From positions 64,001-128,000 of the forward strand of contig SCQK01000013.1 in NCBI GenBank assembly GCA_004321885.1: a stretch of 64,000 nt of DNA, given 5' to 3'. Numbering within the stretch: position 1 is the first letter of the stretch; every line of letters begins with the position of its first letter. This stretch comes from Patescibacteria group bacterium (lineage in GTDB: Bacteria; Patescibacteriota; Patescibacteriia; Magasanikbacterales; GWA2-37-8). Of this stretch, positions 7,220-62,988 are shown one piece after another. A program made the position numbers and the translations under genes. Under the pieces are notes generated by a model. The model saw only the letters and a program-made list of their open reading frames with translations. It searched no databases and was not told the DNA's origin.

Positions 7220-7582
7220 CTACTTTACCAAGCGATTTTTGCCCAACAAATTTAAAATTTTAACAATCTCTTTCTTTAATTTTGGTATATCGTTCTCAAC
7301 GATTTTCCAAACCAGATTAATATCAACTCCAAAATATTCGTGAATGAGGACGTCCCGCGTACCGGCAATTTTTTTCCATTCTACCTGAGGATGCTTCTTT
7401 TTAAAACCAGCTGGCAAGCTTTTGCATGCTTCACCGATTATTTCCAAGCGGCGAATGATCGCGTCTTGAATTGTGGTTGAATCAAAAAAAAATTTTGGCG
7501 TTAATTTCGCCGCATTTTTTTCTATTTCTTCAATACTGGTTAAAATATATTCAAGAAAAAATTCAGGCTGTCTTTTTGCCAT
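7220..7582 (-). CDS. hepT: HepT-like (DUF86) nucleotidyltransferase substrate-binding toxin
   Basis: Rx4HxY motif in RDVLIHEY; size and 20-nt overlap with the upstream MntA-like gene are typical of HepT/MntA pairs. Confidence 0.7.
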   Translation of the reverse strand: MAKRQPEFFLEYILTSIEEIEKNAAKLTPKFFFDSTTIQDAIIRRLEIIGEACKSLPAGFKKKHPQVEWKKIAGTRDVLIHEYFGVDINLVWKIVENDIPKLKKEIVKILNLLGKNRLVK

Positions 7583-7859
7583 AAATTACCTTTTGCCCGC
7601 TCAAAATCGTCTTTCGCAATAACGGGTTGATGCCGCCGTATGAAAGCACGTCTACTCGCAAACCGAGTTTGTCTTCCAGCTCTAATTTTAAACCAACCAA
7701 ATCTAATAATGATTTATTTTTTTGTAATTTTACAAGGAGATCCAAGTCGCTTTTTTTGGTCTGTTCGCCTCGGGCGAAAGACCCAAAAATCGCGGCCTTT
7801 GTCACCCCGTTTTTTTTAAGAATCGGAAAAATTTTTTTGTTTAACGTTTTTAAGGTCAT
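7563..7859 (-). CDS. mntA: MntA-like minimal nucleotidyltransferase antitoxin
   Basis: GSFARGEQTKKSDLDLLV = GSx9-13DxD nucleotidyltransferase motif; ATG at 7857-7859. Confidence 0.7.
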   Translation of the reverse strand: MTLKTLNKKIFPILKKNGVTKAAIFGSFARGEQTKKSDLDLLVKLQKNKSLLDLVGLKLELEDKLGLRVDVLSYGGINPLLRKTILSGQKVIYGKKTA

Positions 7860-7941
7860 AGTTGAAATTATTACCAATTAGACACCAACCCATTAGGAAA
7901 GCTAAATCCATTATTATTCTAACCCTTTTTTGCTTTTTTGT

Positions 7942-9000
7942 CTATTTTTTCTTCAACGTCGTTATCGGCCTACTTTGAGTAATGTATACTGTACCGCTTT
8001 CCATGGCCCATTCAATATCACAAGGGAAACCATAGTGTTGCTCAATTTTCTTGCACACCTTGGCCACTTCAATAATTTCTTTGCCGGTCAGCTTCTGCTT
8101 ACCCCCCTCTTTCTCACTCAACTCAATCCATTTGTTGGAGTCTCTCCCCTTTATAAGGGGAGAGTTAGTGAGGGGTAATTTCGCTTTCACCAACTTCTTC
8201 GTCTGTACTCCAACATTTATATCTACAATACTCATTTCGCTTTTGGAAACAATATAACTGTCGGGTGTAATCTGGCCGCTCACAATCGCTTCGCCCAATC
8301 CAAACCCGGCCTCAATAATCATCTGGTCGGGGTCTTCAGTAACCGGGTGCACAGTAAAGGCGATGCCCGAAATTTCCGACTGCACCATTTTCTGCACCAC
8401 TACCGCGACCGAAACATAATGGTCAATCAGTTTTTTTTCGTGACGATAAAAAATCGCGCGGGGGGTGAAAAGCGAAGACCAGCATTGCTTAACTTTTTCA
8501 ACAACGTTAACGCGCGTGGTGTTCAAATAGGTTTCCAGCTCCCCGGCCCAACTGGCCACGTCGCTGTCCTCGGCCGTAGCGCTGCTTCTCACCGCCACCA
8601 GGTTGTCATCCTGAACTTGTTTCAGGATCCCCGTTCGCCGTCTGTCATTCAGACCCCGCTTAGCGGGGGAGGAATCCCTCCCGCCCAACTCATCAAACGC
8701 CCCCAATATCTCATTCTCCAAATCTTTCGGCATGGGCGTGTCGTGTATCACATCGCGCAAAACATTACTCGCCTTGTCCACGCTGTTGGTGTCTTCGGGA
8801 TCCACGTCAGCCAATCGCGCCTCAATCTCTTCTTTCAATTTCGTTTCCTCAATAAATCTGTCAAACGCGCTCGCCAATACCACAAAACCCGGCGGCACAC
8901 GCAGTTTCGCTTTAGTCATCTCGCCAAGCGAAGCGCCCTTCCCGCCCGCGCTGGCCACATCTTTCTTGGAAATATCCTTAAAAAATTTTATGTGAGGCAT
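7942..9000 (-). CDS. Stand-alone PEP synthase / pyruvate phosphate dikinase N-terminal nucleotide-binding (PPDK_N, ATP-grasp) domain protein; carries three in-frame palindromic inserts
   Basis: VASAGGKGASLGEM, RSSATAEDSDVASWAGELETYLN, AVVVQKMVQSEISGIAFTVHPVT are PPDK_N hallmarks. No phosphohistidine or PEP-binding domain follows. Inserts [32 protein letters not shown] (elements at 8605-8630 and 8644-8680) and NSPLIKGRDSN (8143-8175). Confidence 0.8.
   Translation of the reverse strand: MPHIKFFKDISKKDVASAGGKGASLGEMTKAKLRVPPGFVVLASAFDRFIEETKLKEEIEARLADVDPEDTNSVDKASNVLRDVIHDTPMPKDLENEILGAFDELGGRDSSPAKRGLNDRRRTGILKQVQDDNLVAVRSSATAEDSDVASWAGELETYLNTTRVNVVEKVKQCWSSLFTPRAIFYRHEKKLIDHYVSVAVVVQKMVQSEISGIAFTVHPVTEDPDQMIIEAGFGLGEAIVSGQITPDSYIVSKSEMSIVDINVGVQTKKLVKAKLPLTNSPLIKGRDSNKWIELSEKEGGKQKLTGKEIIEVAKVCKKIEQHYGFPCDIEWAMESGTVYITQSRPITTLKKK
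8143..8175. repeat. Palindromic element, family D (CTCTCCCCTTTATAAGGGGAGAGTTAGTGAGGGG), in frame in the PPDK_N gene
   Basis: Reverse-complement copy at 22373-22405 in the PEP-synthase-like gene, where it encodes SPLYKGRVSEG. Confidence 0.7.
8605..8630. repeat. Palindromic element, family B (GTCATCCTGAACTTGTTTCAGGATCC), in frame in the PPDK_N gene
   Basis: Hairpin ATCCTGAA-CTTGT-TTCAGGAT; further copies at 30589, 31039, 44822, 54761 and inverted variants at 54820 and 55176. Confidence 0.7.
8644..8680. repeat. Palindromic element, family A variant (GTCATTCAGACCCCGCTTAGCGGGGGAGGAATCCCTC), in frame in the PPDK_N gene
   Basis: Similar copy at 43602-43640 in dnaX. Confidence 0.65.
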
Positions 9001-9036
9001 ATTTCAAAAGCAGTCGCTTTGGGCGACTGCCACGAA

Positions 9037-9453
9037 CTATTTAATATATTCACCGATGATCTTCATAAACTTTTTTATATCTCCACTTTCCGCTTTTAGC
9101 TCGGTCAAAAATCGTTTCATGTCAATGTCTTCGTACTTGTGCACTATCCTGTTGCGCAAACCGACTATCGGAGCCAGTTTTAGAGCAAACGCCATGGGCA
9201 AAATTTTATTCTGGCCAAGCGTGATAAATGTGCTTTGATAATCTTCGGGCGCCTGCAAATTTTTCTCGGCGATAATATGCGTGTTGATATCTACCATACA
9301 GTCCACAATGAGCTGAAACAAGCGCTCAATCGCGTGCAATTTCGTCTCATCCTGAATTAAATCAAAAACATCGTCTTCTAAAAGCGCGTCCAACTCTTTC
9401 TGATACCCGCCGATGTCGGTGAGTTTGTTGTAAATAAGCGTTTTGTTGGTCAT
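9037..9453 (-). CDS. hepT: HepT-like (DUF86) toxin, second pair
   Basis: Rx4HxY motif in RNRIVHKY; immediately downstream of a MntA-like gene. ATG at 9451-9453. Confidence 0.65.
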   Translation of the reverse strand: MTNKTLIYNKLTDIGGYQKELDALLEDDVFDLIQDETKLHAIERLFQLIVDCMVDINTHIIAEKNLQAPEDYQSTFITLGQNKILPMAFALKLAPIVGLRNRIVHKYEDIDMKRFLTELKAESGDIKKFMKIIGEYIK

Positions 9454-9462
9454 ACACACAAT

Positions 9463-9864
9463 TTAAGCCAAAAATTTTTGAAGTTGTTTATGCCTTAATT
9501 CATAAAGCGGTTTCGCCTCAACATATCTCTTAAACGCGTACATGCGAAATTTGGCAAACTCGCCGACTTTATCCTCGTATAGAGGAACTCCGTCTCGCCC
9601 TATTTGCAGCATAAGTAACGGCGACGCTCCGCGCGCGTTCACCACTTCCACGTCGCCGCGGCCAAATATATGGCAAAAATTTTCCCGCAACCCGGCTTCT
9701 TCATAATAAGAAATTGGCCCTTTTGTTTTGACGGCAATATCAATGTCGCTGTATTTATGCGTTTTTCCGCGCGCGGCCGAACCAAATAATACGACGAAAT
9801 CAAGACCAGCTTGTTTAGCCGCCTTTTTTATCGCTGTCTTTGTTGTTGAATTTATGACTTTCAT
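9463..9864 (-). CDS. mntA: MntA-like nucleotidyltransferase antitoxin, second pair
   Basis: GSAARGKTHKYSDIDIAV nucleotidyltransferase motif. Confidence 0.7.
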   Translation of the reverse strand: MKVINSTTKTAIKKAAKQAGLDFVVLFGSAARGKTHKYSDIDIAVKTKGPISYYEEAGLRENFCHIFGRGDVEVVNARGASPLLMLQIGRDGVPLYEDKVGEFAKFRMYAFKRYVEAKPLYELRHKQLQKFLA

Positions 9865-10304: not shown

Positions 10305-10492
10305 GTTTTGTTGTGGTTTATTGGAAAATTGCGCTTTATTGCGCTATTTTCCGGCTATAACGTGAGTGTGTTGTTTTTTGAAAATTTGAGGTTTCTTTGG
10401 CCAGAAGTTGAATGCGTAATGCGAATATCTTTTGTTCGTAATGCGCAGTCAACTTCCACGCCCCACCGATGGGGCACACCAAGGAGAGGAAG

Positions 10493-11140
10493 ATGAAGAC
10501 CACGGTGCTGTTCACGAGGCACGAGGACCACAAAGACCAGGTCCTCCTGCCGGACGCGGTCGAGAGAGCGCGCATGCGCGGTCTGCGCCTGCGTGAGAAG
10601 GACTACAAGATCGACCGGGTCAAGGGCTCGCCCCTGCCCCGCGCCGATGCCACCGCCACCGAGATGATGACCGGCTACGGCCAGACCACGGACATCGAGC
10701 GCGAGGCGCGCCTCGGCGACTTCAAATCCGATCCAAGGACGCCGAAGGAGGCGGTGAAGGAGCTCAAGGCGAACGCGGTGGCCAAGCACGGGGATGACTC
10801 CGACTCCAACTTGGCCAAGGAGCTCATCAACACCCCCGCCCTGCACGACCTCCTCTTCGCCCGCGCGAAGGAAGGCGCCGAGGCCCTGCTGGAGATGGCC
10901 GCCGCCAACCCGGGCAAGACCATCCTGGCCGTGAGCCACGGCGTGGCCCGCATGGAGATCGTCCTGCGCTACCTGCGGGGCGTCCGCGACACCGCGCTCC
11001 TGGACATCGTCCCGGAGCTCATCGACCGCGGCGAGGTCATCAAGCTGACCTTCGAGGTCTCGGAAGAGTGGGACGACCTCGCCGAGACGCACCCGGCGCG
11101 GGCCGAGTTCGTCTCGGCCGAGCCCCTCCCGCTCCTCTAA
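10493..11140 (+). CDS. Histidine phosphatase superfamily (phosphoglycerate-mutase-like) protein encoded in a high-GC islet
   Basis: LFTRHEDH (RHG-type motif) near the N-terminus and ILAVSHGVARMEIVL (second catalytic His). RBS ccAAGGAGAGgaagATG. Local GC about 65% against about 40% background; the minus-strand 290-aa ORF is an antisense artefact. Confidence 0.65.
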   Translation: MKTTVLFTRHEDHKDQVLLPDAVERARMRGLRLREKDYKIDRVKGSPLPRADATATEMMTGYGQTTDIEREARLGDFKSDPRTPKEAVKELKANAVAKHGDDSDSNLAKELINTPALHDLLFARAKEGAEALLEMAAANPGKTILAVSHGVARMEIVLRYLRGVRDTALLDIVPELIDRGEVIKLTFEVSEEWDDLAETHPARAEFVSAEPLPLL

Positions 11141-11262
11141 CCCCCCATCTCGCCCGCGTTCCGCGGGCAACTCCAAACACAACTCACTGACACGGCGGTA
11201 CGCATCGCGCGACCGCCCAACTCTCAATGCTTTTCAACGAAAAACATTGAGCGTTACAAAAA

Positions 11263-20253: not shown

Positions 20254-20565
20254 TTACCTATCGCGCCTGGCCCGCAGACATTCTCTGCAGTAAACCGGCT
20301 TGTCGCCGGTGGGCTGGAAGGGCAACTCGGTGATCTTGCCTCCGCACTGGGCGCAGGTCAAGTCCACCTGGTACATCTGGCGCGGAGCGCCAAACGAGCG
20401 TCCGCCGCCGCTCGGGCGGGTCTGGCGGTACGCGCGATTGCATTCATTGCAATACACGGGTCTGTCGCCGGACGGCTGGAAGGGCAGCTGTGAAATATGG
20501 GTCCCGCATTTGCCGCAGGAAAGGTCCACATCGTACATCTGCCTAGTGCTGTTGTCAAAAGCCAT
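20254..20565 (-). CDS. Small tandem zinc-ribbon protein (two CxxC-x17-CxxC repeats) in a high-GC islet
   Basis: QMYDVDLSCGKCGTHISQLPFQPSGDRPVYCNECNR and QMYQVDLTCAQCGGKITELPFQPTGDKPVYCRECLR form an internal duplication. Local GC far above background. Confidence 0.55.
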   Translation of the reverse strand: MAFDNSTRQMYDVDLSCGKCGTHISQLPFQPSGDRPVYCNECNRAYRQTRPSGGGRSFGAPRQMYQVDLTCAQCGGKITELPFQPTGDKPVYCRECLRARRDR

Positions 20566-20881
20566 AACTTTGCTGTTTTTGTTCCCAAAATGTGTTTTGA
20601 GATTGTTTTAGTCGACCTATTTTGGGAACTTTGGCCGAAAACCGGCCTTTTTTAACGTTTCCAAAATTTGTTAAATTATATCACAAAAGCCTGATTTTGT
20701 CAATATCCCCCTAATTTTATCCACAACTATTCCACCAGGCGGCTATTGACAAAAAAACTTATTTGTGATACATATCTGGTATCTTACAATCAAGCCCGGA
20801 GAATGTTTGGCATAAGGAGAAGCGTCCCCTCCTTCGCTTCTTTCCTTTTGTCAAACATCTTCCGGGTTTTTTGTTTGCAGA

Positions 20882-42481: not shown

Positions 42482-43987
42482 ATGTCCACCCTCTACCGCC
42501 TCTACCGCCCGCAGAAGTTCGCCGACGTGACGGGCCAAGAGCACATCATCCAAACCATAACCAACGAGATATGCGCCGCTAAAACGGCGCATGCTTATCT
42601 ATTCTCGGGCCCGCGCGGCACCGGCAAGACCACCCTGGCCCGTCTGCTGGCTAAGGCCGTGAACTGCCAAAACCGCAAAGATGGGGAATCTGAACCGTGC
42701 AATGAGTGCCCATCTTGCGCGGAAATTTCCGCCAGCCGCAATATAGACGTAATGGAAATAGACGCGGCCTCGCATACGGGCGTGGAAAATGTGCGCGAAA
42801 ATATCATAGACAGCGCGCAATTTCAGCCCACCAAATCCAAATACAAAATTTTCATCATAGACGAGGTGCACATGCTTTCCACTCCGGCTTTCAACGCCCT
42901 GCTCAAAACCCTGGAAGAGCCGCCGGCGCACGTGATTTTCGTGCTGGCCACCACCGAACTGCAAAAACTGCCGGCTACCATTGTATCGCGCTGTCAACGT
43001 TTTACCTTCAAAAAAATCGGCTTTGACCAGATGATGAGCAAACTTTTGAAAATCTGCAAAGACCAGGACGTAAAGGTGGACAAAAAAGTGCTGGAGCGGG
43101 TGATAAACAAAAGCGACGGCTGTATGCGCGACGCTGAATCCCTGCTTGGTCAAATTTTAACGTTGAATCAAAAAAATATCGGGCCCGAAGACGCGGAAAT
43201 GATTTTGCCCACGTCCAATGCGCGACAGATTTTGAATTTCGTGGATGCAATTTTGAACCGCGACGTTAAAAGCGCCGTGGCTCTGATAAACGAACTGGTT
43301 TCCGACGGCGTGAATCTGGAGCAATTCGCCTATGACGCGCTGGAAATTTTGCGCCTGCTGATGATTTTGCAATACGACCCAACCAAGGAAATTTTGGATT
43401 ACAGCGACGAAGACGCCAAACTGATTAAAAAAATGACCAAACAGGCGCCGGCCGAGCAGATTATAAAATTAACGGACGCGCTGATGGCGCGCCGAGCGCA
43501 AATTAAATCCGCGCCTATTCCCCAGCTGCCCCTGGAGCTCTTCGCCGTGGAATTCTCAAACTGTCATTCCGGACTTGATACGGAATCCATCGCCGCCAAC
43601 TGTCATTCTGAGGCCCCGCTTAGCGGGGACGGAGAATCCCTCTCGCCATCTATCACGCAAAAAATCAAAACCACTCTGGACGAAATTAAAAACAAGTGGC
43701 ACGATATAACTGCCGGCCTCACCGAACAAAATCACTCACTCGGCTTTATCCTGAAAATGGGCGAACCGGCCAGAATGGAAGGAAATGAACTGTATTTGCG
43801 CGTGCCATTTTCCCTGCACAAAGAAAAAATTGAAGAGCAAAAAACCAAAAAATTGATAGAGGGCGCGATGACAGACGCCTTTGGGGAAAAAATTTGCCTG
43901 ATTTGCGAGGTGACGCAGGCGCAAAATGATGATGGCGAAATCACCCAGCTCGCGAGTGAATTTGGGGGTGAAGTTGTCTCACTCTAA
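42482..43987 (+). CDS. dnaX: DNA polymerase III subunit gamma/tau with two in-frame palindromic inserts near the C-terminus
   Basis: GPRGTGKTTLARLLAKAVNC (Walker A), zinc module CNECPSCAEISASRNIDVMEIDAAS, Walker B KIFIIDEVHMLS, sensor SRCQRF; inserts CHSGLDTESIAANCHSEAPLSGDGESLS from elements at 43563-43588 and 43602-43640. Confidence 0.9.
   Translation: MSTLYRLYRPQKFADVTGQEHIIQTITNEICAAKTAHAYLFSGPRGTGKTTLARLLAKAVNCQNRKDGESEPCNECPSCAEISASRNIDVMEIDAASHTGVENVRENIIDSAQFQPTKSKYKIFIIDEVHMLSTPAFNALLKTLEEPPAHVIFVLATTELQKLPATIVSRCQRFTFKKIGFDQMMSKLLKICKDQDVKVDKKVLERVINKSDGCMRDAESLLGQILTLNQKNIGPEDAEMILPTSNARQILNFVDAILNRDVKSAVALINELVSDGVNLEQFAYDALEILRLLMILQYDPTKEILDYSDEDAKLIKKMTKQAPAEQIIKLTDALMARRAQIKSAPIPQLPLELFAVEFSNCHSGLDTESIAANCHSEAPLSGDGESLSPSITQKIKTTLDEIKNKWHDITAGLTEQNHSLGFILKMGEPARMEGNELYLRVPFSLHKEKIEEQKTKKLIEGAMTDAFGEKICLICEVTQAQNDDGEITQLASEFGGEVVSL
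43563..43640. repeat. Two adjacent family A palindromic elements (GTCATTCCGGACTTGATACGGAATCC and GTCATTCTGAGGCCCCGCTTAGCGGGGACGGAGAATCCC) in frame in dnaX
   Basis: Read directly; the ORF remains open through both. Confidence 0.65.
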
Positions 43988-46709: not shown

Positions 46710-47312
46710 TCATCGCGCCGACGAGAACTGATAAACCAAACCCGGATTCTGATACTTCCCCGACGGGTCGCGGTAGCCGAGCTCGCTCCGGCCAGCCTTG
46801 GCGAGCGTCTCGGCAAAGAGATCGACGACAACCTCCTCGCCGCCCTCACCGGCAACCACCACCCAGGTGTAGCCAAATCCGAGGCCCGGCAGCATCTTGC
46901 CGCACGCCCTGGCCTGCAACCCCGCCTCCATCAGCAAGACAAACAGATAGGCGTGATAGTACCGGCAGCACGCTATGGCATGGCTGAGCGCGAATGACAG
47001 TTTGGCCTGCTCCGGCGAGGGCGAGAACACGAATCTGTGATACGTCTGGCGCGCATCCTCGTCCAGCTTCGTGTCGTTAGCCAGAACCACCGCGTTATGC
47101 GGCAACGCGGCGAGCACGAGGGTCTTTACCGCCGCAAGTCGCGCGCCGATGCCCTGCGGAGAGCTGGCTTGTTCCCGCGCCAGCCGCAGATGACATCCTA
47201 TGAAGCGGTACTCGTCATCCATCTGCACGTCGAAGATGTTCTCTCCCACCCACTGTCGCCTCGCCTCAACGACCTGGGGCTTCCCGTTGTCTGCCTGCCC
47301 GTTGTCTGACAT
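46710..47312 (-). CDS. Hypothetical 200-aa protein encoded in a high-GC islet
   Basis: RBS aacAGGAGAGAGAGaacATG on the minus strand; GC about 65%; no recognisable family (MSDNGQADNGKPQVVEARRQWVGENIFDVQMDDEYRF...). Confidence 0.5.
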   Translation of the reverse strand: MSDNGQADNGKPQVVEARRQWVGENIFDVQMDDEYRFIGCHLRLAREQASSPQGIGARLAAVKTLVLAALPHNAVVLANDTKLDEDARQTYHRFVFSPSPEQAKLSFALSHAIACCRYYHAYLFVLLMEAGLQARACGKMLPGLGFGYTWVVVAGEGGEEVVVDLFAETLAKAGRSELGYRDPSGKYQNPGLVYQFSSAR

Positions 47313-55201: not shown

Positions 55202-58045
55202 TTACTGGCCGTGACAGCGCTTGTATTTCTTCCCGCTGCCGCAAGGGCAAGGGTCGTTGCGGCCCACCACTTTGCCGGCCTCGTCGCGCACTTTTTTCCC
55301 GGCCGGCGCGGCGCCGTTGTCGCTGGTCTTGCTGGCCCCGCTAAACATCAGATTCCCCGCCTGCATCACCGACGGCGCTATCTGTATTCCCAAATTTACT
55401 TTATAAACCAAATACACCACTTCTTTTTGAATGTAATTAAGCAGTTCGTTGAACATCCGGTAGGTTTCTTTTTTGTATTCCACCAGCGGGTCGTGCTGGG
55501 CATAGCCGCGCAGGCCAATGCCGGTGCGCAAATAATCCACGGCCACCAAATGTTCCACCCACAGATTGTCTATGGCGCGCAGCAATACTTGTTTTTCTAT
55601 CTCGGCCATCATCTCGGGCGGGGCTTGTTTGACCAGCAGTTCCTCGTATTTATACTTGGCCGTTTCTATCAAAAATTCTATGAGTTGCGTCCTAATCGTA
55701 ACATCATCAACCCGCCCGCCCACCGGCGGGGCGCCAAATTCTCCGATTTTTTTCTTTTCATCGTCAGACAGCGGGAAAATGGTCGTCATTGTTTCGGCAA
55801 TTTCTTTCACATTCCAGTCACTGCGGTCTTCGGCGTTGGTATGGAACGAAACCACCTCTTCAATTTCCTGTTCTATCATTTCCAAAATCATGACGCGCAA
55901 ATTTTTTACCCCCTCTTTCGTCTCCCCCTTATCAAGGGGGAGAGAAGCGGTGGACGTCTCCGCCATATCACGAGAGAGAGAAGCGGTTGATTCAAAAGCG
56001 CGCAATACCTCGCGCCGTTTGCCGTAAATCACCTCGCGGTGCTTGTTGAGCACGTCATCGTACTCCAGCAAATGTTTGCGCGTGTCAAAATGCAAACCCT
56101 CCACTTTGCGCTGGGCGCTTTCTATAATGCGCGTAATCATCCCCTGCTCTATGGGCATGTCATCTGGCACTTTAAGGGCGTTCATTACCCCGCGTATTCT
56201 GTCGCCGGCAAAAATACGCATCAGGTCGTCTTCGGTGGAAAGGAAAAATTGCGACTGCCCCGGGTCGCCCTGGCGCCCGCTGCGGCCGCGCAACTGGTTG
56301 TCTATACGCCGGCTCTCGTGGCGCTCGGTGCCCAGCACAAACAAACCGCCGGCCGCGCGCACGCGCCCGGCTTCTTCGGGTACAGGCGGATTACCGCCCA
56401 AAATTATATCCACTCCCCTGCCGGCCATGTTGGTGGCCAGGGTCACGCGCCCGGGCTGGCCGGCCTGCGCGATTATCTCGCCCTCGCGCTCATGATTCTT
56501 GGCGTTTAGAATTTCATGCGCTATTCCCTCTCTTTGCAAATGCAAACTCAAGGCCTCGTTTTTCTCCACTGATACCGTGCCTATCAAAACCGGCTGGCCC
56601 TTGGCCTGTAATTCTTTTACCATCTGGGCGATGGCCTTGTGCTTGGCCTCTTCGGTTTTATAAATCCTGTCCGGAAAATTCGTGCGCTGGCTGGGTTTGT
56701 TCGGCGGAATTACCACCACTTCCAGTTTGTAAATTTTGCCGAACTCTTCGGCCTCGGTGACGGCCGTGCCGGTCATGCCCGACAGCTTTTCGTACAAACG
56801 GAAATAATTTTGAAAAGTAACCGTGGCCATGGTCTGACTTTCATGTTGAATGACCACGTTTTCTTTGGCTTCTATGGCCTGATGCAAGCCCTCGCTATAG
56901 CGGCGGCCCGGCATTTTGCGGCCGGTAAATTCGTCCACTATGAGCACCTCGCTGTTTTCCACGATATAGTCGCGGTCGCGCAAGAAAAGCGTCTGCGCCC
57001 GCAAAGCCTGCTCCACGTGGTGCACGGTACGCACCCCGCCCTCGGCGTAAATATTGTCCACGCCCAGCCATTTTTCCATTTTAGCGATGCCGGCTTCGGA
57101 AAGCGTGGCCGAGCGCATTTTTTCGTCTATGTTAAAGTCCTCGTTTTCTTTCAAGCGGCGCACCAGCTCGGCGAATTTGTAATACATGTCGGCCGCTTTT
57201 TCGGCCGGCGCGGAAATAATCAAGGGGGTGCGGGCTTCGTCTATTAAAATGGAGTCAACCTCGTCCACGATGGCGTAAAAAAACGGCCGCTGTACCATCT
57301 CGCTCAAATTTTGCACCATGTTGTCGCGCAAATAATCAAAGCCATATTCGTTGTTGGTGCCATAAGTGACGTCGCAGCCGTAGGCCTCTTGGCGCGAGCA
57401 GGGTTCCAAAAATTCCGTTTCCACTTTGTACATTCCTTTGGCGTCGCGTTCTTTGTCTGCTTCACTGCCCTCCTGTAACCCCACCCCCTGCCACCACACC
57501 AAAGATTTTGGTGTGGTGGCCTGCCCATCCCCTAATAGGGGAGGGGTTTTTGCGTAGCGAAAAGAAACACCAAGCTGTTGAATCACGCCCACGCTCAATC
57601 CCAAAGCATCATATATCTGCCCCATCCACACAGCGTCGCGTTTGGCCAAATAATCATTCACAGTCACCACGTGCACTCCCCTGCCGGCCAAGCCGTTTAG
57701 ATACACAGGCAAGGTAGCCACCAGGGTTTTGCCCTCGCCAGTGCCCATCTCAGCGATAGCGCCGCTATGCAAAGCCATGCCGCCCTTTAGCTGGACGTCA
57801 AAATGGCGCATACCAGTCAAACGTTTTGATGTTTCGCGCACCACGGCAAACGCCTCGGGCAAAATATCGTCCAGGGTGGCGCCGTCGGCCAAACGCTTTT
57901 TGAACTCATCGGTTTTGCCCCGCAACTGTTCCAAACTCAAAGACGCCATCCCGCTTTCCAGGGCATTGATTCTTTCCACGAGCGGCTTGTATCCGGCAAT
58001 CACTTTCGCATTCGGGTCGCCAAAAATTCTGCTAAAAAAAGACAT
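55202..58045 (-). CDS. secA: Preprotein translocase ATPase SecA with in-frame palindromic inserts
   Basis: MSFFSRIFGDPNAKVIAGYKPLVERINALE, GEGKTLVATLPVYLNGLAGRGVHVVTVNDYLAKRD, HQAIEAKE, TNMAGRGVDIILGG, C-terminal zinc motif CPCGSGKKYKRCHG; inserts PPLLGDGQATTPKSLVWWQGVG (57481-57546) and ASLPLDKGETKE (55921-55944). ATG at 58043-58045. Confidence 0.9.
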   Translation of the reverse strand: MSFFSRIFGDPNAKVIAGYKPLVERINALESGMASLSLEQLRGKTDEFKKRLADGATLDDILPEAFAVVRETSKRLTGMRHFDVQLKGGMALHSGAIAEMGTGEGKTLVATLPVYLNGLAGRGVHVVTVNDYLAKRDAVWMGQIYDALGLSVGVIQQLGVSFRYAKTPPLLGDGQATTPKSLVWWQGVGLQEGSEADKERDAKGMYKVETEFLEPCSRQEAYGCDVTYGTNNEYGFDYLRDNMVQNLSEMVQRPFFYAIVDEVDSILIDEARTPLIISAPAEKAADMYYKFAELVRRLKENEDFNIDEKMRSATLSEAGIAKMEKWLGVDNIYAEGGVRTVHHVEQALRAQTLFLRDRDYIVENSEVLIVDEFTGRKMPGRRYSEGLHQAIEAKENVVIQHESQTMATVTFQNYFRLYEKLSGMTGTAVTEAEEFGKIYKLEVVVIPPNKPSQRTNFPDRIYKTEEAKHKAIAQMVKELQAKGQPVLIGTVSVEKNEALSLHLQREGIAHEILNAKNHEREGEIIAQAGQPGRVTLATNMAGRGVDIILGGNPPVPEEAGRVRAAGGLFVLGTERHESRRIDNQLRGRSGRQGDPGQSQFFLSTEDDLMRIFAGDRIRGVMNALKVPDDMPIEQGMITRIIESAQRKVEGLHFDTRKHLLEYDDVLNKHREVIYGKRREVLRAFESTASLSRDMAETSTASLPLDKGETKEGVKNLRVMILEMIEQEIEEVVSFHTNAEDRSDWNVKEIAETMTTIFPLSDDEKKKIGEFGAPPVGGRVDDVTIRTQLIEFLIETAKYKYEELLVKQAPPEMMAEIEKQVLLRAIDNLWVEHLVAVDYLRTGIGLRGYAQHDPLVEYKKETYRMFNELLNYIQKEVVYLVYKVNLGIQIAPSVMQAGNLMFSGASKTSDNGAAPAGKKVRDEAGKVVGRNDPCPCGSGKKYKRCHGQ
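57481..57546. repeat. Two adjacent palindromes in frame in secA: GCCACCACACCAAAGATTTTGGTGTGGTGGC and CCATCCCCTAATAGGGGAGGGG
   Basis: Read directly; 11-bp and 7-bp perfect stems. Confidence 0.6.
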
Positions 58046-58176
58046 AGAACCACTAATCTTTTTCGCTAATCTCACTAATCGCGAACGCCGTAATTCTATC
58101 ATATTTACGCGGAAAAGCAAGGGGTCGCGCGGTACACTGGCTCGCGCGATGAACAAATTTATGCTATAATATCCCC

Positions 58177-59898
58177 ATGGCCGAAAACATCTTTTTGCAA
58201 ATAAGCCTGCTGTTGGCCCTCACGGTGGGCGCGGCTTTCATTCTGCGCCTCCTGCGCCAGCCCCTGATTATCGCTTACCTGGCCGTGGGCGTGCTGGCCG
58301 GCCCCATGTTTTTCAATCTGCTCAAAGGCGGGGCAAATGTTTACGACGCGTTCGCCAAAATCGGCGTGGTGCTTTTGCTGTTTGTCGTGGGCCTCAATCT
58401 CAATCTCGGCTATCTCAAAAAAATCGGCAAAGTGGCCATCATCACCGGCCTGGCCCAGGTTACGCTCACCGCTCTCATCGGCATGGCCATCTTGCAGGCG
58501 CTCAAATTTTCCCTGCTCTCTTCCATCTATCTGGCCGTCGCCATCACCTTTTCTTCCACCATCATCATCACCAAGCTGCTCAATGAAAAAAAACACACTG
58601 AAAGCATGTACGGCCGCTATGTCATCGGCCTGATGCTGATGCAGGATTTTGTCGCCATTATTATAATGATGATTCTGGGCATCACCCGCCAGCAGGCCGA
58701 ATTTTCCGCCGGCGCGCCCCTGGCCCTGAAAATTATTTTTCTGGCTGGCTTTATTCTGGCTCTAACAAAATACATTGCCCCCGCCATCTTAAAACGCGTG
58801 GCCGACTCCGGGGAATTTTTGTTTGTCTTTACCCTGGCCTGGTGCCTGGGCATCGCCAGCATCACCTATTGGCTGGGCTTTCCGGTGGAAGTCGGGGCCA
58901 TCATCGCCGGCCTCACCCTGGGCTCAACGCCCTATCAGCCAGAAATTTCCAGCCGCGTCAAACCATTGCGCGATTTTTTCATTGTTTTGTTTTTCATCAT
59001 TCTGGGCGGCAGTTTGGAGCTAAACAATTTGCGCGCTTCCCTCGCGCCCGGCCTCATTCTTTCGCTTTATATCCTCATTGGCAACCCGCTCATTCTTTAC
59101 ATCCTTTATCGCCTGCACAAATTCAACCGTCGCAACAGCTTTTTATCGGCCCTTACCGCGGCCCAGGTGAGCGAGTTCGGCTTTATATTGCTTTACACCG
59201 GCGCCGGCATCGGCCACCTGGGGAAAAACGAGATTCCTGTTTTTACTCTGGTTGCCTTAATCACAATCTTCATTTCTTCCTACCTTATTACTTACAATGA
59301 AAGAATTTATCATTTTTTGAAGCCGTTTTTTGCCCTGTTCGGCAAAGACAACCGAACGCAAAAAGAAGACGATGCCGCCTCTTATGATGTCTGGGTCTTC
59401 GGCTATCATCGCATCGGCTGGAAGGTTTGCGAAGCATTGATTGAAAAAAAGATTAAATTCGCGGTGGTGGATTACAATCCGGAAATTATTTCCAAATTAA
59501 AAAAACGCGGGGTGCCCAGTTATTTCGGCGATGCCTCGGATATAGAATTTTTAGACGCCTTGCCTCTGGGCGAGGCTAAACTTATTATTTCCACTTTGCC
59601 CACGGTAGAAGACCAGCGCGCCCTGATAGCGCATGTAAAGCACAACGGCAAAATTAGACGCGGGCGGGCGCGCCAGGCCCCGTTTTTCATCGCCAGCTTG
59701 TACGACGACGCCTACCTACAGGAGCTGTATGAAATGGGCGCGGATTATGTGATGATGCCGCATCTGCTGGGCGGCCAGCGCATTTACGATGTTTTGAAAC
59801 GCGGGCATTGGGCCAAAGAAGGCTTGAAAAAATTAAGGCAGTACCAAAAAGACGAGCATAATTCGCGCTTTGAGGCGCTGGGCGCCCGCCATTGTTAA
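58177..59898 (+). CDS. Monovalent cation:proton antiporter-2 (Kef/CPA2-type) with C-terminal RCK/TrkA-N domain
   Basis: 12-13 TM helices (…GVLAGPMFFNLLKGGANVYDAFAKIGVVLLLFVVGL…), then VFGYHRIGWKVCEALIEKKIKFAVVDYNPE (Rossmann GxGxxG-like RCK). Extended -10 TGcTATAAT 6 nt before the ATG. Confidence 0.8.
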   Translation: MAENIFLQISLLLALTVGAAFILRLLRQPLIIAYLAVGVLAGPMFFNLLKGGANVYDAFAKIGVVLLLFVVGLNLNLGYLKKIGKVAIITGLAQVTLTALIGMAILQALKFSLLSSIYLAVAITFSSTIIITKLLNEKKHTESMYGRYVIGLMLMQDFVAIIIMMILGITRQQAEFSAGAPLALKIIFLAGFILALTKYIAPAILKRVADSGEFLFVFTLAWCLGIASITYWLGFPVEVGAIIAGLTLGSTPYQPEISSRVKPLRDFFIVLFFIILGGSLELNNLRASLAPGLILSLYILIGNPLILYILYRLHKFNRRNSFLSALTAAQVSEFGFILLYTGAGIGHLGKNEIPVFTLVALITIFISSYLITYNERIYHFLKPFFALFGKDNRTQKEDDAASYDVWVFGYHRIGWKVCEALIEKKIKFAVVDYNPEIISKLKKRGVPSYFGDASDIEFLDALPLGEAKLIISTLPTVEDQRALIAHVKHNGKIRRGRARQAPFFIASLYDDAYLQELYEMGADYVMMPHLLGGQRIYDVLKRGHWAKEGLKKLRQYQKDEHNSRFEALGARHC

Positions 59899-59958
59899 GT
59901 TTTGAATATTAAAAACTCGCACACGAAAACATAGAAAAAGATATCCACAGCCCCGCGC

Positions 59959-59987
59959 TTGACACTAAGCGGGGTGTAAAGTATCAT
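59959..59987 (+). promoter_or_regulatory. Sigma70-type promoter TTGACA-N17-TATCAT embedded in the palindrome CCCCGCGCTTGACACTAAGCGGGG, upstream of the high-GC islet gene
   Basis: ttgaca 59959-59964; tatcat 59982-59987; about 110-nt GC-rich leader with hairpins; RBS cAAGGAGAGacggATG. Confidence 0.55.
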
Positions 59988-60101
59988 ATACCGGCTTCGG
60001 AAAGTGGTAACGGGCCCATCCGTCGGTTGACGGAGAATTAGGGCTACGTGCCAATCCTCTAAAGCCCTCGCATGAGCGAGGCAACGAACAAGGAGAGACG
60101 G

Positions 60102-60485
60102 ATGGAAACCAAGACGCAGAAGGGGAACCTCGCCGTGCCCGTCATCGCCCCCGACACGGACCAGCTCCAAAAGGCAATCTTCACGCACGAGCCCACCCCG
60201 ATCGTCTACAAGAACGAGAAGGGCGAGCTGGTGCGCTGCTGGGCGGCCTTCAACGCCGTCCACGCCGAGACCGCCGACAAGAGCGTGTTCGTGCTGCGGG
60301 GCAAGATCGTGGCCGGCGACGCGAACTTCCTGCGCGCGCACGAGAACGCGGTGCGCCGGAACTACGAGGCGTCCCTCATCTACAAGCTCGGGCAGGACTA
60401 CGCCCAGCTGGAGATGTGGGACAAGTCCGGCAAGGACGAGATCCCGCCGGGCACGTTCTCGAGCGACGACCACCGCGCGCGATAG
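60102..60485 (+). CDS. Hypothetical 127-aa protein in a high-GC islet
   Basis: METKTQKGNLAVPVIAPDTDQLQKAIFTHEPTPIVYKNEKGELVRCWAAFNAVHAETADKSVFVLRGKIVAGDANFLRAHENAVRRNYEASLIYKLGQDYAQLEMWDK...; strong GC3 bias; AGGAGAG RBS. The minus-strand 265-aa ORF is an antisense artefact. Confidence 0.5.
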   Translation: METKTQKGNLAVPVIAPDTDQLQKAIFTHEPTPIVYKNEKGELVRCWAAFNAVHAETADKSVFVLRGKIVAGDANFLRAHENAVRRNYEASLIYKLGQDYAQLEMWDKSGKDEIPPGTFSSDDHRAR

Positions 60486-60639
60486 CGCCACCGACAGAAC
60501 CACGGCGCTAACCGCAACCGCACATTCCCACCAGTCGTCCCCTCCCCAATTCGGGACGCATCTCACAGTAGACTGTGAACCCCATCGCGACACGCGTCGC
60601 GGTAGCGCGGTTCCCTCTGCGAGACACAACACAAGAGGC

Positions 60640-60669
60640 CCGACCCAGCAACAGCAGGTCGGTCTTTTT
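60640..60669 (+). terminator. Terminator CCGACCCAGCAACAGCAGGTCGG plus TCTTTTT ending the high-GC islet
   Basis: 6-bp GC stem and T-run, read directly. Confidence 0.55.
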
Positions 60670-60675
60670 CGTTTA

Positions 60676-60699
60676 CAAAAAACCCCGCTCATTGCGGGG
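60676..60699 (-). terminator. Terminator hairpin CCCCGCAATGAGCGGGG plus T-run (minus strand) after the 60736-61377 gene
   Basis: RC reads ccccgcaatgagcggggttttttgtaaac. Confidence 0.55.
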
Positions 60700-60735
60700 T
60701 CTATAGCTTTATAACTTGATAACTTTCTACTTCAA

Positions 60736-61377
60736 TCACGGTTCCACCAAAATCTGCGCCGCGCCGCCGCCATCGCACGTGATGAAGAACTTGCCCACAT
60801 ACTTGGCCGTGGCAATGGCGAAACCGTATTTGGGCACATAGTACGACTGCTTGCCGAAAGCAACGGTGTGCGCCTTGGCATCGCGGTTGTCCAGCATAAA
60901 CTGCTTGCCTTTTTTCATGGTCAAAGACCCGGGCGTGCCTTTGCATTTATAAAACTGATAATAATACCCGGATTTGCGATAGATACTTAAAGCCTTAGTG
61001 TAACTTAATGTGGCCGAAGGGCTGACGCCTGTTTTAGCGCCAGTACCCGTAACACCACCTGTGCCTGGCACCGTGGATGCGGCGGTAGTGGCGGTAGTGG
61101 CGGTTTTATCCGTGGACGGCTGTTCCCCTGCCTCGGTAGTGGTCGCGGTCTGCTCTTCGCCCGGCGCCGGACTGACGGCCGGTTTCTTGCCCCATTTATT
61201 CCAGGCCAGCAAAGCCACCACAATCGCCACAATCACGATAATTGTGGGCAGATTGCCTTTTTTGTCCGCCGGCGGCGCTTCGGGCGCCGACTGCCCGCCT
61301 GTTGGCGGGTTTCCCGCTCCGCCAACTGGCGGATTGGTATTTTGGTTGTCCATAAAGTCAAAAATTACATTACTCAC
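60736..61377 (-). CDS. Hypothetical membrane-anchored protein with Pro/Thr/Gly-rich linker
   Basis: TM anchor LPTIIVIVAIVVALLAW, low-complexity TATTATTAASTVPGTGGVTGTGAKTG, C-terminal about 90-aa domain. Confidence 0.4.
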   Translation of the reverse strand: MSNVIFDFMDNQNTNPPVGGAGNPPTGGQSAPEAPPADKKGNLPTIIVIVAIVVALLAWNKWGKKPAVSPAPGEEQTATTTEAGEQPSTDKTATTATTAASTVPGTGGVTGTGAKTGVSPSATLSYTKALSIYRKSGYYYQFYKCKGTPGSLTMKKGKQFMLDNRDAKAHTVAFGKQSYYVPKYGFAIATAKYVGKFFITCDGGGAAQILVEP

Positions 61378-61451
61378 ACTTTCCCTCCGCTATCATCAAT
61401 ATACCCCAACCCGCTCAAAAAGTCAACGATTGCGGGATCCCCGCCGCGTTT

Positions 61452-61489
61452 ACAAAAAATCCCCGACTTAGCCGGGAATTTTTTACTTG
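61452..61489 (-). terminator. Hairpin AAATCCCCGACTTAGCCGGGAATTT with flanking A/T runs, downstream of tRNA-Trp
   Basis: Palindrome family E variant; T-run on the minus strand. Confidence 0.45.
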
Positions 61490-61560
61490 CAGGGGCTGAG
61501 GGAATCGGACCCCCAACTTCTCTTTTGGAGAGAGGTGTTATACCACTTAACTAAGCCCCC
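61490..61560 (-). tRNA. tRNA-Trp (anticodon CCA)
   Basis: RC: GGGGGCT-TA-GTTA-AGTGGTAT-AAC-A-CCTCT-CTCCAAA-AGAGA-AGTT-GGGGG-TCCGATT-CCCTC-AGCCCCT-G; anticodon loop CUCCAAA. Confidence 0.75.
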
Positions 61561-61577
61561 GAGAGGGGCGGCTCTTA

Positions 61578-61733
61578 TTATTTCGTCTCTTTGTGCATGG
61601 TATGTTTTTTGCAATGCCGGCAGAATTTTTTCATCTCCAAGCGGTTTTTGAGAGTTTTTTTGTTGCGGGTGCTGAAATAATTCGCGCGCTTGCATTGCGA
61701 GCATTCCAACTTGGCCAAATTATCTTGAGACAT
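61578..61733 (-). CDS. rpmG: 50S ribosomal protein L33
   Basis: [51 protein letters not shown] (51 aa) fits C-x2-C…NY-x2-T-x-NK…L-x2-KK-x-C-x2-C-x-KHT-x-H-KETK; below the ORF-track cut-off. Confidence 0.8.
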
Positions 61734-61797
61734 AATAAAATATTAGGCTTGGTGGAGTGTAGCACACTTCACGCGAATTGTCAAAATTATTTCCCTC

Positions 61798-61825
61798 TTG
61801 ACAACTCATACACAGGAGGTATGAT
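61798..61825 (+). promoter_or_regulatory. Sigma70-type promoter TTGACA-N16-TATGAT driving a + strand GC-rich non-coding region
   Basis: ttgaca 61798-61803; tatgat 61820-61825. A divergent minus-strand TTGACA-N17-TACACT (61756-61784) sits upstream of rpmG. Confidence 0.5.
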
Positions 61826-62046
61826 AAAAGTAGACGAACCTTTTATTTCATACTGTATGGGGACGCGAAAGTGCGGGCGCGCCTAGGCTAACCGAGGCGC
61901 CTCTTTACAAGGAACCGCTGGCTGAAAAACAACCGGTTCGGGGCAAGAGTCCCGAAACAAGCGCTTGGCGCACGGATTGTTTTTCAACCCCAGGTCGGCT
62001 GGGTCTGCCCGCAGTGTAGAGTTAAAAACAGTCCCGACTTAGTCGG
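61826..62046 (+). ncRNA. Candidate small RNA (about 220 nt, GC-rich) between a consensus promoter and a bidirectional terminator
   Basis: Hairpins GGCGCGCC…GGCGCC, GGAACCG…CGGUUC, GGGG…CCCC; ends at ACAGUCCCGACUUAGUCGGGACUGU plus UUUU (62018-62046). Only a 21-codon ORF is present. Class undetermined; the strand call rests on the promoter. Confidence 0.3.
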
Positions 62047-62051
62047 GACTG

Positions 62052-62323
62052 TTTTGGCGCGAGCCGATGAGCGGATTTGAACCGCTGACCACCTCCTTCG
62101 CTTATACTTTATATTGCTATAAAGACTAGACTGTATCTTTGGCTTATCCTTTACCGGACTTAGCCACCCTTGTCAGTCGTTCGCCCGCGATTAGCGGGAC
62201 GGTCTTGTCCCAATTTATTTAGGGATATTAACCGTTATTCGGGATTCACCACGATGTTTCCATCGTGATGGGCGAGGCTTGCGGCTCACCATGGAGGTGC
62301 TCTACCAACTGAGCTACATCGGC
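62052..62323 (-). tRNA. tRNA-Thr (anticodon GGT) interrupted by a 199-nt group I intron in the anticodon loop
   Basis: 5' exon GCCGATG-TA-GCTC-AGTTGGTA-GAGC-A-CCTCC-ATGGT (62288-62323). 3' exon AA-GGAGG-TGGTC-AGCGG-TTCAAAT-CCGCT-CATCGGC-T (62052-62088). Joined anticodon loop AUGGUAA gives GGU. Position equals E. coli thrT in thrU-tyrU-glyT-thrT. Confidence 0.6.
62089..62287 (-). ncRNA. Group I intron (199 nt) in tRNA-Thr(GGU), inserted after U36
   Basis: 5' exon ends in U that can pair with a G in the intron (P1); the intron ends in G. GNRA-capped hairpins (GAGCC-GCAA-GCCUC; CACGAUGG-AAA-CAUCGUG); core-like elements AAUUGGGACAAG (P-like), UAAUCGCGGGCG (Q-like), ACGACUGACA (R-like), AAGAUACAGUCUAGUC (S-like, compare AAGAUAUAGUCC) in canonical order. 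Confidence 0.5.
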
Positions 62324-62328
62324 ATTTT

Positions 62329-62988
62329 CTAATTTTTTTTATTTTCCAAAATCCTCATTAATTCATCTCTCATTTTTTTATTATGGTAATAAACTGTTAA
62401 AACTCCATGTCTACTTTTTTCGCGATAAGTACCTTTTCTAACAGACATTGTTATCGTGCTTTTGTAAAATTGATTTTTATTTACCTTTATTTGCCCCTTC
62501 CAAAACCTTAGCGCTTCAGTCACTGAAATGTCATTGAATAACTGAAGGCTAAACTTAAGGTCTTTTCTTCTAATGGAAAAAAATTTAACTAAAAAGTCAA
62601 TAAATTTCTTGACCAATCTTGGGTCAGTATTTCCCAACCTAACTGTGCATTTATCCGCTTTTGTTCCCTCCCCCCAGTATAACCCAAGTCCAAAACCATA
62701 TAAAATTCCCTCTTTTAATGTATGTGGATACTTTATGACAAATGGATCACCGTTTGGGTTATTTTTTTTGTAAATAGCTTCACTGATAGATCTACACGTA
62801 ATCGAATATTTTTCCATCCAATAACGTATTTTATTTACTGAACATTCGAAAATATTGGCAATTTCTTGTGCCGACTTTCCCTGATTTTGATATAATTTTT
62901 GCAAAACACCTTTGCTTATCATATCACAAATTATATCATAGCCGACTGAATAGTACAAGTAACCCCAAGTAGATAATATGGTTGTCAA
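62329..62988 (-). CDS. HTH plus LAGLIDADG-like protein (possible free-standing homing endonuclease) lying between the two intron-containing tRNA genes, in the position of glyT
   Basis: N-terminal HTH (QGKSAQEIANIFECSVNKIRYWMEKY); central ILYGFGLGLYWGEGTK resembles a single LAGLIDADG motif (LxGFxDGDG); 219 aa. Confidence 0.4.
   Translation of the reverse strand: MTTILSTWGYLYYSVGYDIICDMISKGVLQKLYQNQGKSAQEIANIFECSVNKIRYWMEKYSITCRSISEAIYKKNNPNGDPFVIKYPHTLKEGILYGFGLGLYWGEGTKADKCTVRLGNTDPRLVKKFIDFLVKFFSIRRKDLKFSLQLFNDISVTEALRFWKGQIKVNKNQFYKSTITMSVRKGTYREKSRHGVLTVYYHNKKMRDELMRILENKKN

Follow-up and report, generated by a model that had tools for sequence, protein, structure and literature searches.

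Orphan genes are usually AT-rich. Horizontally acquired genes with an atypical GC content or codon usage are said to ameliorate over time (the model of Lawrence and Ochman). In Neisseria, palindromic repeats (Correia elements) create promoters at their insertion sites. In phages, a moron is a single gene that has its own promoter and terminator and an atypical nucleotide composition (PMC4378225). The lgr genes of Protochlamydia amoebophila are lineage-restricted, GC-richer than the genome and without homologues elsewhere (PMC2216083). Here, we report on a GC-rich single-gene unit, referred to as islet 4, from a Patescibacteria group bacterium. It is located on contig SCQK01000013.1, of which positions 64,001-128,000 were analyzed (64,000 nt, below called the window; all positions count from the start of the window). 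An initial annotation had singled out four high-GC islets in this window. Among known concepts, islet 4 comes closest to a genomic islet, or orphan gene, of atypical composition.

Region 59951-60705 can be read as a complete unit that carries the signals for independent expression of a real orphan protein. According to this reading, to which we assign a probability of roughly 55%, a GC-rich segment was inserted, a copy of a hairpin was recruited for its expression, and the high GC content at third codon positions (GC3) is held by a bias. The initial annotation had called the region a self-contained cassette, and the anatomy that it described is confirmed, with minor corrections. The predicted promoter, leader, Shine-Dalgarno sequence (SD), open reading frame (ORF), 3' untranslated region (3'UTR) and terminator are all present, in this order:

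59951-59956 and 59969-59974, no strand: arms of the palindrome CCCCGC-N12-GCGGGG, with a 6-bp stem and a 12-nt loop that holds the -35 element
59959-59964 and 59982-59987, plus strand: predicted sigma-70-type promoter TTGACA-N17-TATCAT, matching the consensus at 11 of 12 positions
59994-60101, plus strand: 5' leader of ~108 nt (its start placed according to the -10 element), GC 0.58, with small hairpins
60090-60097, plus strand: SD AAGGAGAG, its GGAG core 6 nt from the ATG
60102-60485, plus strand: coding sequence of 127 codons and a stop codon (60483-60485), assigned by codon periodicity and codon usage
60486-60632, plus strand: 3'UTR, GC-rich and C/A-rich, with several stable hairpins (~150 nt when taken as 60486-60635, GC 0.62)
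60633-60669, plus strand: predicted intrinsic terminator of the islet gene, a GC-rich stem followed by TTTTT (-15.9 kcal/mol)
60673-60705, minus strand: predicted native-type terminator of the convergent gene at 60736-61377, TTACAAAAAA and CCCCGC-tcatt-GCGGGG (minus-strand fold of -17.1 kcal/mol)

The predicted promoter, which had been proposed with the same hexamers and spacer, is of the sigma-70 type in both respects and lies 114 nt 5' of the ATG. It is the top-scoring site in 59500-61500, a region with 5 promoter-like sites (1.2 expected). Its TTGACA is common to the predicted promoters of islets 1, 3 and 4 and of islets in related genomes. The palindrome around this -35 element was also found as described; as RNA, it folds at -14.3 kcal/mol. 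It could be a candidate repressor operator or a weak terminator of the preceding kefB-like gene.

The leader had been described as structured, GC-rich and about 110 nt long. Its length and its GC content hold, while its folding is not significantly better than that of shuffled sequences (z = -1.7). When the whole window was searched with the Rfam covariance models at the gathering threshold, only tRNAs were retrieved and no known leader or riboswitch; a lenient search of islet 4 (E up to 10) gave chance-level matches only. The AGGAGAG that had been assigned as ribosome binding site is part of AAGGAGAG and is well placed. According to a change-point fit, the GC-rich tract extends from 60115 to 60662 (coding sequence and 3'UTR, up to the terminator), with a GC content of 0.66 versus 0.50 outside.

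The 127-codon ORF of high GC3 was recovered as annotated. Its GC contents at the first, second and third codon position (GC1/GC2/GC3) are 0.62/0.39/0.97, with third-position T at 0.00 and 3% of codons ending in A. Non-coding GC-rich DNA does not yield such a pattern, so that, judged by codon periodicity, the ORF is a genuine coding sequence. An alternative in-frame ATG at 60072 would result in a protein of 137 residues and is not preceded by an SD.

The GC-rich 3' region of about 150 nt is present as well. It has a biased base composition (28 T in 187 nt), and the 3' part folds better than shuffled sequences (z = -5.7 for 60483-60705, terminators included). Two terminators had been attributed to the cassette. 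The one at 60633-60669, with a hairpin and a U-run on the plus strand, is predicted to serve the islet gene. For the second hairpin (60683-60699), the T-run is found on the minus strand, so that it qualifies as a terminator on that strand only. It is preceded by TTACAAAAAA, which is the usual context in this genome, and is therefore attributed to the convergent neighbor. There are 7 copies of TTACAAAAAA in the window versus 0.73 expected (at 7718, 11254, 22826, 52242, 60673, 61450 and 62764), and those at 11254, 60673 and 61450 are immediately followed by a hairpin and T-runs, a stereotyped bidirectional terminator context. A retro-copy origin, considered for the A-rich tail before the right hairpin, was dropped for this reason: TTACAAAAAA plus hairpin is the standard terminator context of the genome. 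The stacked 3' hairpins of islet 4 may shield its transcript from 3'-5' exonucleases.

Islet 4 has counterparts in the window. While native genes have a GC3 of 0.55-0.65 (background ~0.58), three ORFs stand out:

10493-11140, plus strand: islet 1, histidine phosphatase family, GC3 0.94
46710-47312, minus strand: islet 3, an orphan of 200 residues, GC3 0.78, with SD AGGAGAGAGAG, a predicted promoter TTGACA-N17-CATTAT and its own terminator
60102-60485, plus strand: islet 4, GC3 0.97

Their codon usage differs from that of native genes. Islet 4 uses AAG, TTC, ATC and CTC/CTG exclusively, whereas native genes prefer AAA, TTT and TTG. For lysine, the AAG:AAA ratio is 10:0 in islet 4, 12:2 in islet 1 and 206:522 in native genes. 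The corresponding TTC:TTT ratios for phenylalanine are 5:0, 5:0 and 120:259, and the leucine codon TTG is found 0 times in islet 4, once in islet 1 and 322 times in native genes.

It had been noted that three of the four islets share AGGAGAG, and this is borne out: the motif precedes all three ORFs (10482 and 60091 on the plus strand, 47320 on the minus strand) and has just 5 copies in the window, both strands considered. That this sharing is meaningful is supported by the scarcity of SDs among native genes, most of which lack one. Some of them look leaderless (e.g., kefB, where TGcTATAAT at 58162-58176 ends 6 nt before the ATG). Among all compared Magasanikbacteria-like loci, a strong SD was found at any candidate start for 90 of 738 background ORFs (12%) versus 10 of 13 GC3-outlier ORFs (Fisher p = 2.4e-7). 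A GC-rich, structured mRNA may need an SD, while native mRNAs, being AU-rich and unstructured, would manage without one.

GC3-outlier ORFs are scattered over the Magasanikbacteria-like loci. There are 15 of them in 0.80 Mb (10 if the loci selected via the phosphatase are left out), as compared to none in 0.57 Mb of other loci from the Candidate Phyla Radiation (CPR) and DPANN (Poisson p ~5e-4). By eye, many of their products resemble lipoproteins or secreted proteins, and most of those checked have no Pfam family. Islet 4 fits into this class of GC3-extreme, SD-led and mostly single-gene units. A full-text literature search returned no description of this gene-class pattern in Patescibacteria.

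The persistence of such a composition can be followed for islet 1. Phosphatase orthologues with the same synteny were found in at least four independent assemblies, and there are two probable further orthologues in a weaker context:

L082, 4253-4909: orthologue of islet 1
L084, 5001-5630: orthologue of islet 1
L166, 197-856: orthologue of islet 1
L167, 5001-5621: orthologue of islet 1
L168, 1386-2102: probable orthologue on a short contig
L099, 7673-8344: probable orthologue, a phosphatase-like ORF without Pfam match

The orthologues adjoin genes with a PEP-utilizers domain (and, where the contig reaches that far, with a PPDK_N domain) and are encoded on the strand opposite to these neighbors. 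Their GC3 is 0.80-0.94, that of the surrounding genes 0.27-0.58. On a logit scale, the offset over the background is nearly constant (2.13 +/- 0.53). The phosphatases are 44-58% identical between genomes. The PPDK_N proteins next to them are 73-79% identical, and the identity at fourfold-degenerate sites of their genes is down to 25-45% (25%, which is near chance, between the window and L084). This divergence indicates that the phosphatase gene is an old resident rather than a recent arrival. Judged by these comparisons, the GC-rich composition of islet 1 is actively maintained and not the leftover of a fresh transfer. A constant offset is what a constant GC fixation bias would give on top of the mutational bias of each genome. 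For islet 4, the offset is 3.1 (128 codons), which is compatible with the islet 1 regime, and we infer that islet 4 belongs to the maintained class.

The leader of islet 1 is worth mentioning on its own. It extends over ~190 nt (10305-10492) from a conserved predicted promoter TTGACAAAA-N13-TATAnT, and the same arrangement is found for the orthologues in L082, L084, L166 and L167. It contains a long hairpin, and compensatory changes are seen at 12 of the 19 pairs predicted for it. Rfam gave no match to this leader, which may be a new cis-regulatory RNA.

The protein encoded by islet 4 is listed at NCBI as hypothetical protein EPN28_03555 from Patescibacteria group bacterium. A product of unassigned function had been annotated, for which a homology search was proposed. 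This search returned only the protein itself, both when 5.8 billion proteins were screened with a word-indexed method and when 1.84 billion cluster representatives were subjected to a full HMMER search. There was no match in Pfam, PHROGs, PADLOC, NCBIfam or the PDB sequences, none by tblastn against phage and plasmid records, and none in a scan of viral contigs. Lenient local searches against all compared loci and the other GC3-outlier ORFs gave nothing credible. The AlphaFold2 model, computed without an alignment, is not usable (predicted local distance difference test score, pLDDT, of 46.6). By eye, the sequence shows neither a signal peptide nor a membrane segment, and the product looks like a small soluble protein. 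Its ratio of Gly, Ala, Arg and Pro to Phe, Tyr, Met, Ile, Asn and Lys (GARP/FYMINK) is 1.06 (native median 0.87, range 0.71-1.24), and its K/(K+R) is 0.59 (native median 0.65, range 0.41-0.90).

These data bear on the alternative that islet 4 is a recent horizontal acquisition. In this case, a piece of ~0.6-0.7 kb would have come from a high-GC, SD-using donor, landed between the convergent genes and not yet have drifted towards the composition of the recipient; the promoter would be a native site, either fortuitous or new, and no maintenance would have to be invoked. The GC3 (0.97) and the codon choice of islet 4, typical of ~70% GC genomes and atypical for the resident genome, speak for it, as do the strong SD, unlike that of native genes, the GC-rich and hairpin-rich 3' flank, and the orphan status. 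The setting would also be suitable, given that relatives have a tRNA cluster downstream of kefB and that locus L001 has a GC-rich pyrF-pyrE insert after this cluster. We nevertheless consider recent transfer a doubtful, if possible, explanation. No homologue turned up in either protein collection, even though GC-rich bacteria are well sampled. The amino acid composition is native-like, neither GARP-rich nor poor in lysine, which weighs against a fresh import from a ~70% GC genome and fits better with a resident gene. Finally, the islet 1 orthologues have kept their composition while the synonymous identity of their neighbors is nearly gone. From this persistence it follows that, in this lineage, a gene need not be recent to have a high GC content. 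For islet 4, the persistence of islet 1 across a deep divergence is the basis for proposing that its G/C-ending codons are probably kept by a fixation bias, which may consist in biased gene conversion or in selection that acts on the mRNA or on how it is translated.

A second alternative concerns the palindrome around the -35 element. It had been proposed that this palindrome is a dispersed palindromic element (CCCCGCTTAGCGGGG, with a TTA loop) into which a -35 hexamer has been inserted, and that such palindromes deliver or shape promoters. CCCCGCTTAGCGGGG would then be a mobile, promoter-carrying element. The palindrome class as such is above chance in the window: CCCCGC-N3-15-GCGGGG occurs 4 times versus 0.19 expected, and none of 100 shuffles exceeded one match. 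The 168 compared loci contain only one match, which is an unrelated terminator hairpin, so that the stem appears to be a feature of this genome. When the intragenic pair and the pair flanking islet 4 are each counted once, however, the 6-bp stem is not significant (expectation ~0.19). The CCCCGCTTAGCGGGG palindrome has only two copies in the window (8654 and 43614). Both are intragenic parts of a larger common repeat (tgtcattc..ga..palindrome..ggagaatccctc); what they have in common with the promoter palindrome is no more than the 6-bp stem, and the longer flanks are absent at 59951. No promoter-like site is found near these two copies, no other promoter-like site of the window lies inside such a palindrome, and comparable islets of related genomes have promoters that are devoid of it. 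A general promoter-delivering palindromic element is not supported, and we regard this origin of the islet 4 promoter as improbable.

The two repeat regions (8600-8690 and 43560-43650) consist of tgtcattc..., CCCCGCTTAGCGGGG and ...ggagaatccctc, together with units of the GTCATCCTGAAC/GTCATTCCGGAC type. They are located within long ORFs, one with a PPDK_N domain and one that, by eye, is dnaX-like, and both ORFs remain intact.

The simplest reading, and one more likely than delivery by a dispersed element, is suggested by the similarity of the promoter palindrome to the adjacent terminator of the convergent gene, of which it may be a partial copy. The two hairpins have an identical stem, and 9 of the 14 following bases agree in register (binomial p = 0.008, post hoc). 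They are part of a direct repeat:

59969-59988 and 60694-60713, no strand: 20-nt direct repeat D2, left copy GCGGGGTGTAAAGTATCATA (which includes the -10 element) and right copy GCGGGGTCTATAGCTTTATA, 75% identity, spacing 725

A GC-rich gene segment may thus have been inserted beside the terminator of the convergent neighbor, with a partial duplication of the hairpin. The left hairpin copy would then have been recruited as promoter, the -35 element being placed in its enlarged loop and the -10 element being provided by the duplicated flank.

It was also considered that the ORF is spurious, the islet being either a GC-rich non-coding RNA gene or the site of an antisense gene of 265 codons (59895-60692). 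Long ORFs do arise by chance in GC-rich DNA, the antisense ORF covers the entire islet, and the 3' part is strongly structured. The sense frame, however, has a GC3 that is far above GC1, which in turn is above GC2, and it starts with an ATG behind a well-placed SD. The values for the antisense frame (0.76/0.45/0.58) are those expected for the shadow of a GC3-rich gene, and Rfam gave no match. A spurious ORF is thus very improbable. An assembly chimera, with reads from a GC-rich organism being mis-joined into a Patescibacteria contig, might account for an island whose composition changes abruptly within a metagenome-assembled genome, but has next to no probability, as a contig from an independent Logan assembly (SRR8426592, L169, 4820 bp) is identical to 57497-62316 with 0 mismatches across both junctions, the spacing of promoter, SD and terminators is in register for function, and like islets recur in many independent assemblies.

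Islet 4 is located between the stop codons of two convergent genes:

58177-59898, plus strand: kefB-like Na+/H+ exchanger gene (Pfam domains Na_H_Exchanger and TrkA_N)
60736-61377, minus strand: gene for a protein of 213 residues of no assigned function, convergent to the islet gene

The searches detected no relatives of the protein of 213 residues. The surroundings are chromosomal and of the housekeeping type, with the kefB-like antiporter gene and, close by, genes for tRNA-Trp and ribosomal protein L33; secA-like and dnaX-like genes were identified by eye elsewhere in the window. The closest relatives of the kefB product are 52-59% identical and mostly labelled Magasanikbacteria (58-59% for the best ones in genome and metagenome scans); the organism is thus Magasanikbacteria-like. 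In eight loci of relatives (L001, L006, L007, L009, L010, L011, L014 and L015), kefB is followed by 3-4 clustered tRNA genes. Directly after this cluster, L001 has a pair of GC-rich genes, pyrF-pyrE (8248-9641), with a GC3 of 0.75-0.84 versus 0.25. The DNA of islet 4 has no repeat-like match elsewhere in the window or in the compared loci.

Several points weigh against an insertion with a maintained composition. Islet 4 itself has no orthologue, so that its age, its selection regime and the insertion event are not directly demonstrable. The best kefB matches are just 58-59% identical and the downstream synteny is not conserved, which precludes a comparison with an empty site. The class of GC3-extreme genes is partly set by the GC3 threshold and thus subject to selection bias, from which the phosphatase orthologues alone are free. 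Lastly, the statistic for the flanking repeat is post hoc, and other repeats of 18-21 nt with a similar identity arise by chance in this region.

A few further features of the window were encountered. A gene at 20254-20565 (minus strand), which is moderately GC-rich, is probably islet 2 of the initial annotation. Its product of 103 residues has two zinc fingers of the treble-clef type (Pfam zf_Tbcl_2, E = 9e-27). The gene is preceded by a leader of ~110 nt and, at 20703, by a predicted consensus promoter TTGACAAAA...TATAAT. Islet 3 lies just upstream of a gene that, by eye, resembles a tRNA-dihydrouridine synthase; when 5.8 billion proteins were searched, the islet 3 protein retrieved only itself. 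The ORFs at 7220-7877 and 62329-62988 are outliers of the opposite kind, with a GC3 of 0.30-0.44. The latter codes for 219 residues and has no Pfam match.

If the inferred duplication holds, islet 4 is a concrete example of how the copy of a terminator hairpin can give rise to a promoter. By itself, islet 4 is no more than an accessory orphan gene whose expression signals are neatly arranged, and its interest stems from the gene class that it indicates. One small parasite genome harbors two gene regimes, a majority of genes that are SD-less and lean towards A/T, and a few that are SD-led and GC3-extreme. The composition of the sister gene has resisted mutational drift at a protein identity of 44-58%, which contradicts the usual expectation of amelioration. 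By implication, synonymous sites are under selection or biased conversion in organisms whose evolution is considered to proceed mainly by drift and reduction. Tentatively, islet 4 could be a member of a hitherto undescribed second gene regime in Magasanikbacteria. This would be made up of mostly single-gene units that have strong promoters and SDs, codons ending almost exclusively in G/C, and 3'UTRs rich in GC and hairpins, and whose composition is actively held ~2 logit units above the background in every genome, regardless of its GC content.

It is tempting to speculate that this second regime might be adjusted to the GC-rich hosts on which these parasites live. For another, cultivated Patescibacteria parasite, uptake of host RNA and its degradation by polynucleotide phosphorylase (PNPase) have been reported; the hosts are reported to be GC-rich, and codon usage in the parasite complements that in the host (2026 preprint, 10.64898/2026.06.21.733656). 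Three forms of such tuning are possible. Translation might proceed via imported host tRNAs and would then act as a codon-based sensor of host contact. The mRNAs might be made to outlast the parasite's own RNA-degrading machinery. Alternatively, the products or the mRNAs might be meant for the host. If it is true that the regime is tied to GC-rich hosts, it would provide a handle on host interaction in uncultured Patescibacteria.

The comparison with known systems shows likeness and difference in each case. As in a phage moron, islet 4 consists of one ORF with its own promoter and terminator, is placed between two neighbors, and has a composition unlike that of its flanks. It differs from a moron by its chromosomal housekeeping context, which is not that of a prophage, and by the lack of any match to PHROGs, phages or viral contigs. 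In addition, its GC content is above that of the host, and its sister unit is an anciently conserved one that has kept its composition; to our knowledge, such a conservation is not known for morons.

With Correia elements, islet 4 shares a promoter hexamer within an inverted repeat, the stem of which recurs in the genome. Unlike Correia elements, miniature inverted-repeat transposable elements (MITEs) and repetitive extragenic palindromic (REP) sequences, there is no multi-copy element that has common termini or has duplicated its target; the recurrent copies lie within genes. The size of ~0.7 kb, the single ORF and the structured 3' region are reminiscent of an integron gene cassette. In contrast to such a cassette, islet 4 has its own promoter and is solitary, not part of an array. 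The attC core sites (GTTRRRY, RYYYAAC) were searched on both strands of 60486-60720 and none was found, and no integrase-like product was recognized among the ORFs of 58500-62500. On account of the lacking core motifs, integrase-like neighbor and array, this reading was ruled out.

Like the lgr genes, the islet genes are lineage-restricted and markedly GC-richer than the genome. The lgr genes, however, are 5-kb leucine-rich-repeat paralogs that result from recent duplication, whereas the islet genes are small and mutually unrelated. The islets are further set apart by the contrast between SD-led and SD-less genes and by their persistence at the orthologue level. With acquired islets and orphan genes, islet 4 has in common that it is a compositional outlier with its own signals and an orphan product, next to a terminator- and tRNA-rich region. 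It departs from typical orphans in being GC3-extreme, and its sister gene has not ameliorated despite the synonymous divergence of its neighbors. What is unusual is the combination of a very high GC3 with the use of an SD in an SD-poor genome in the case of islet 4 and, in the case of the sister islet, the persistence of this composition among orthologues.

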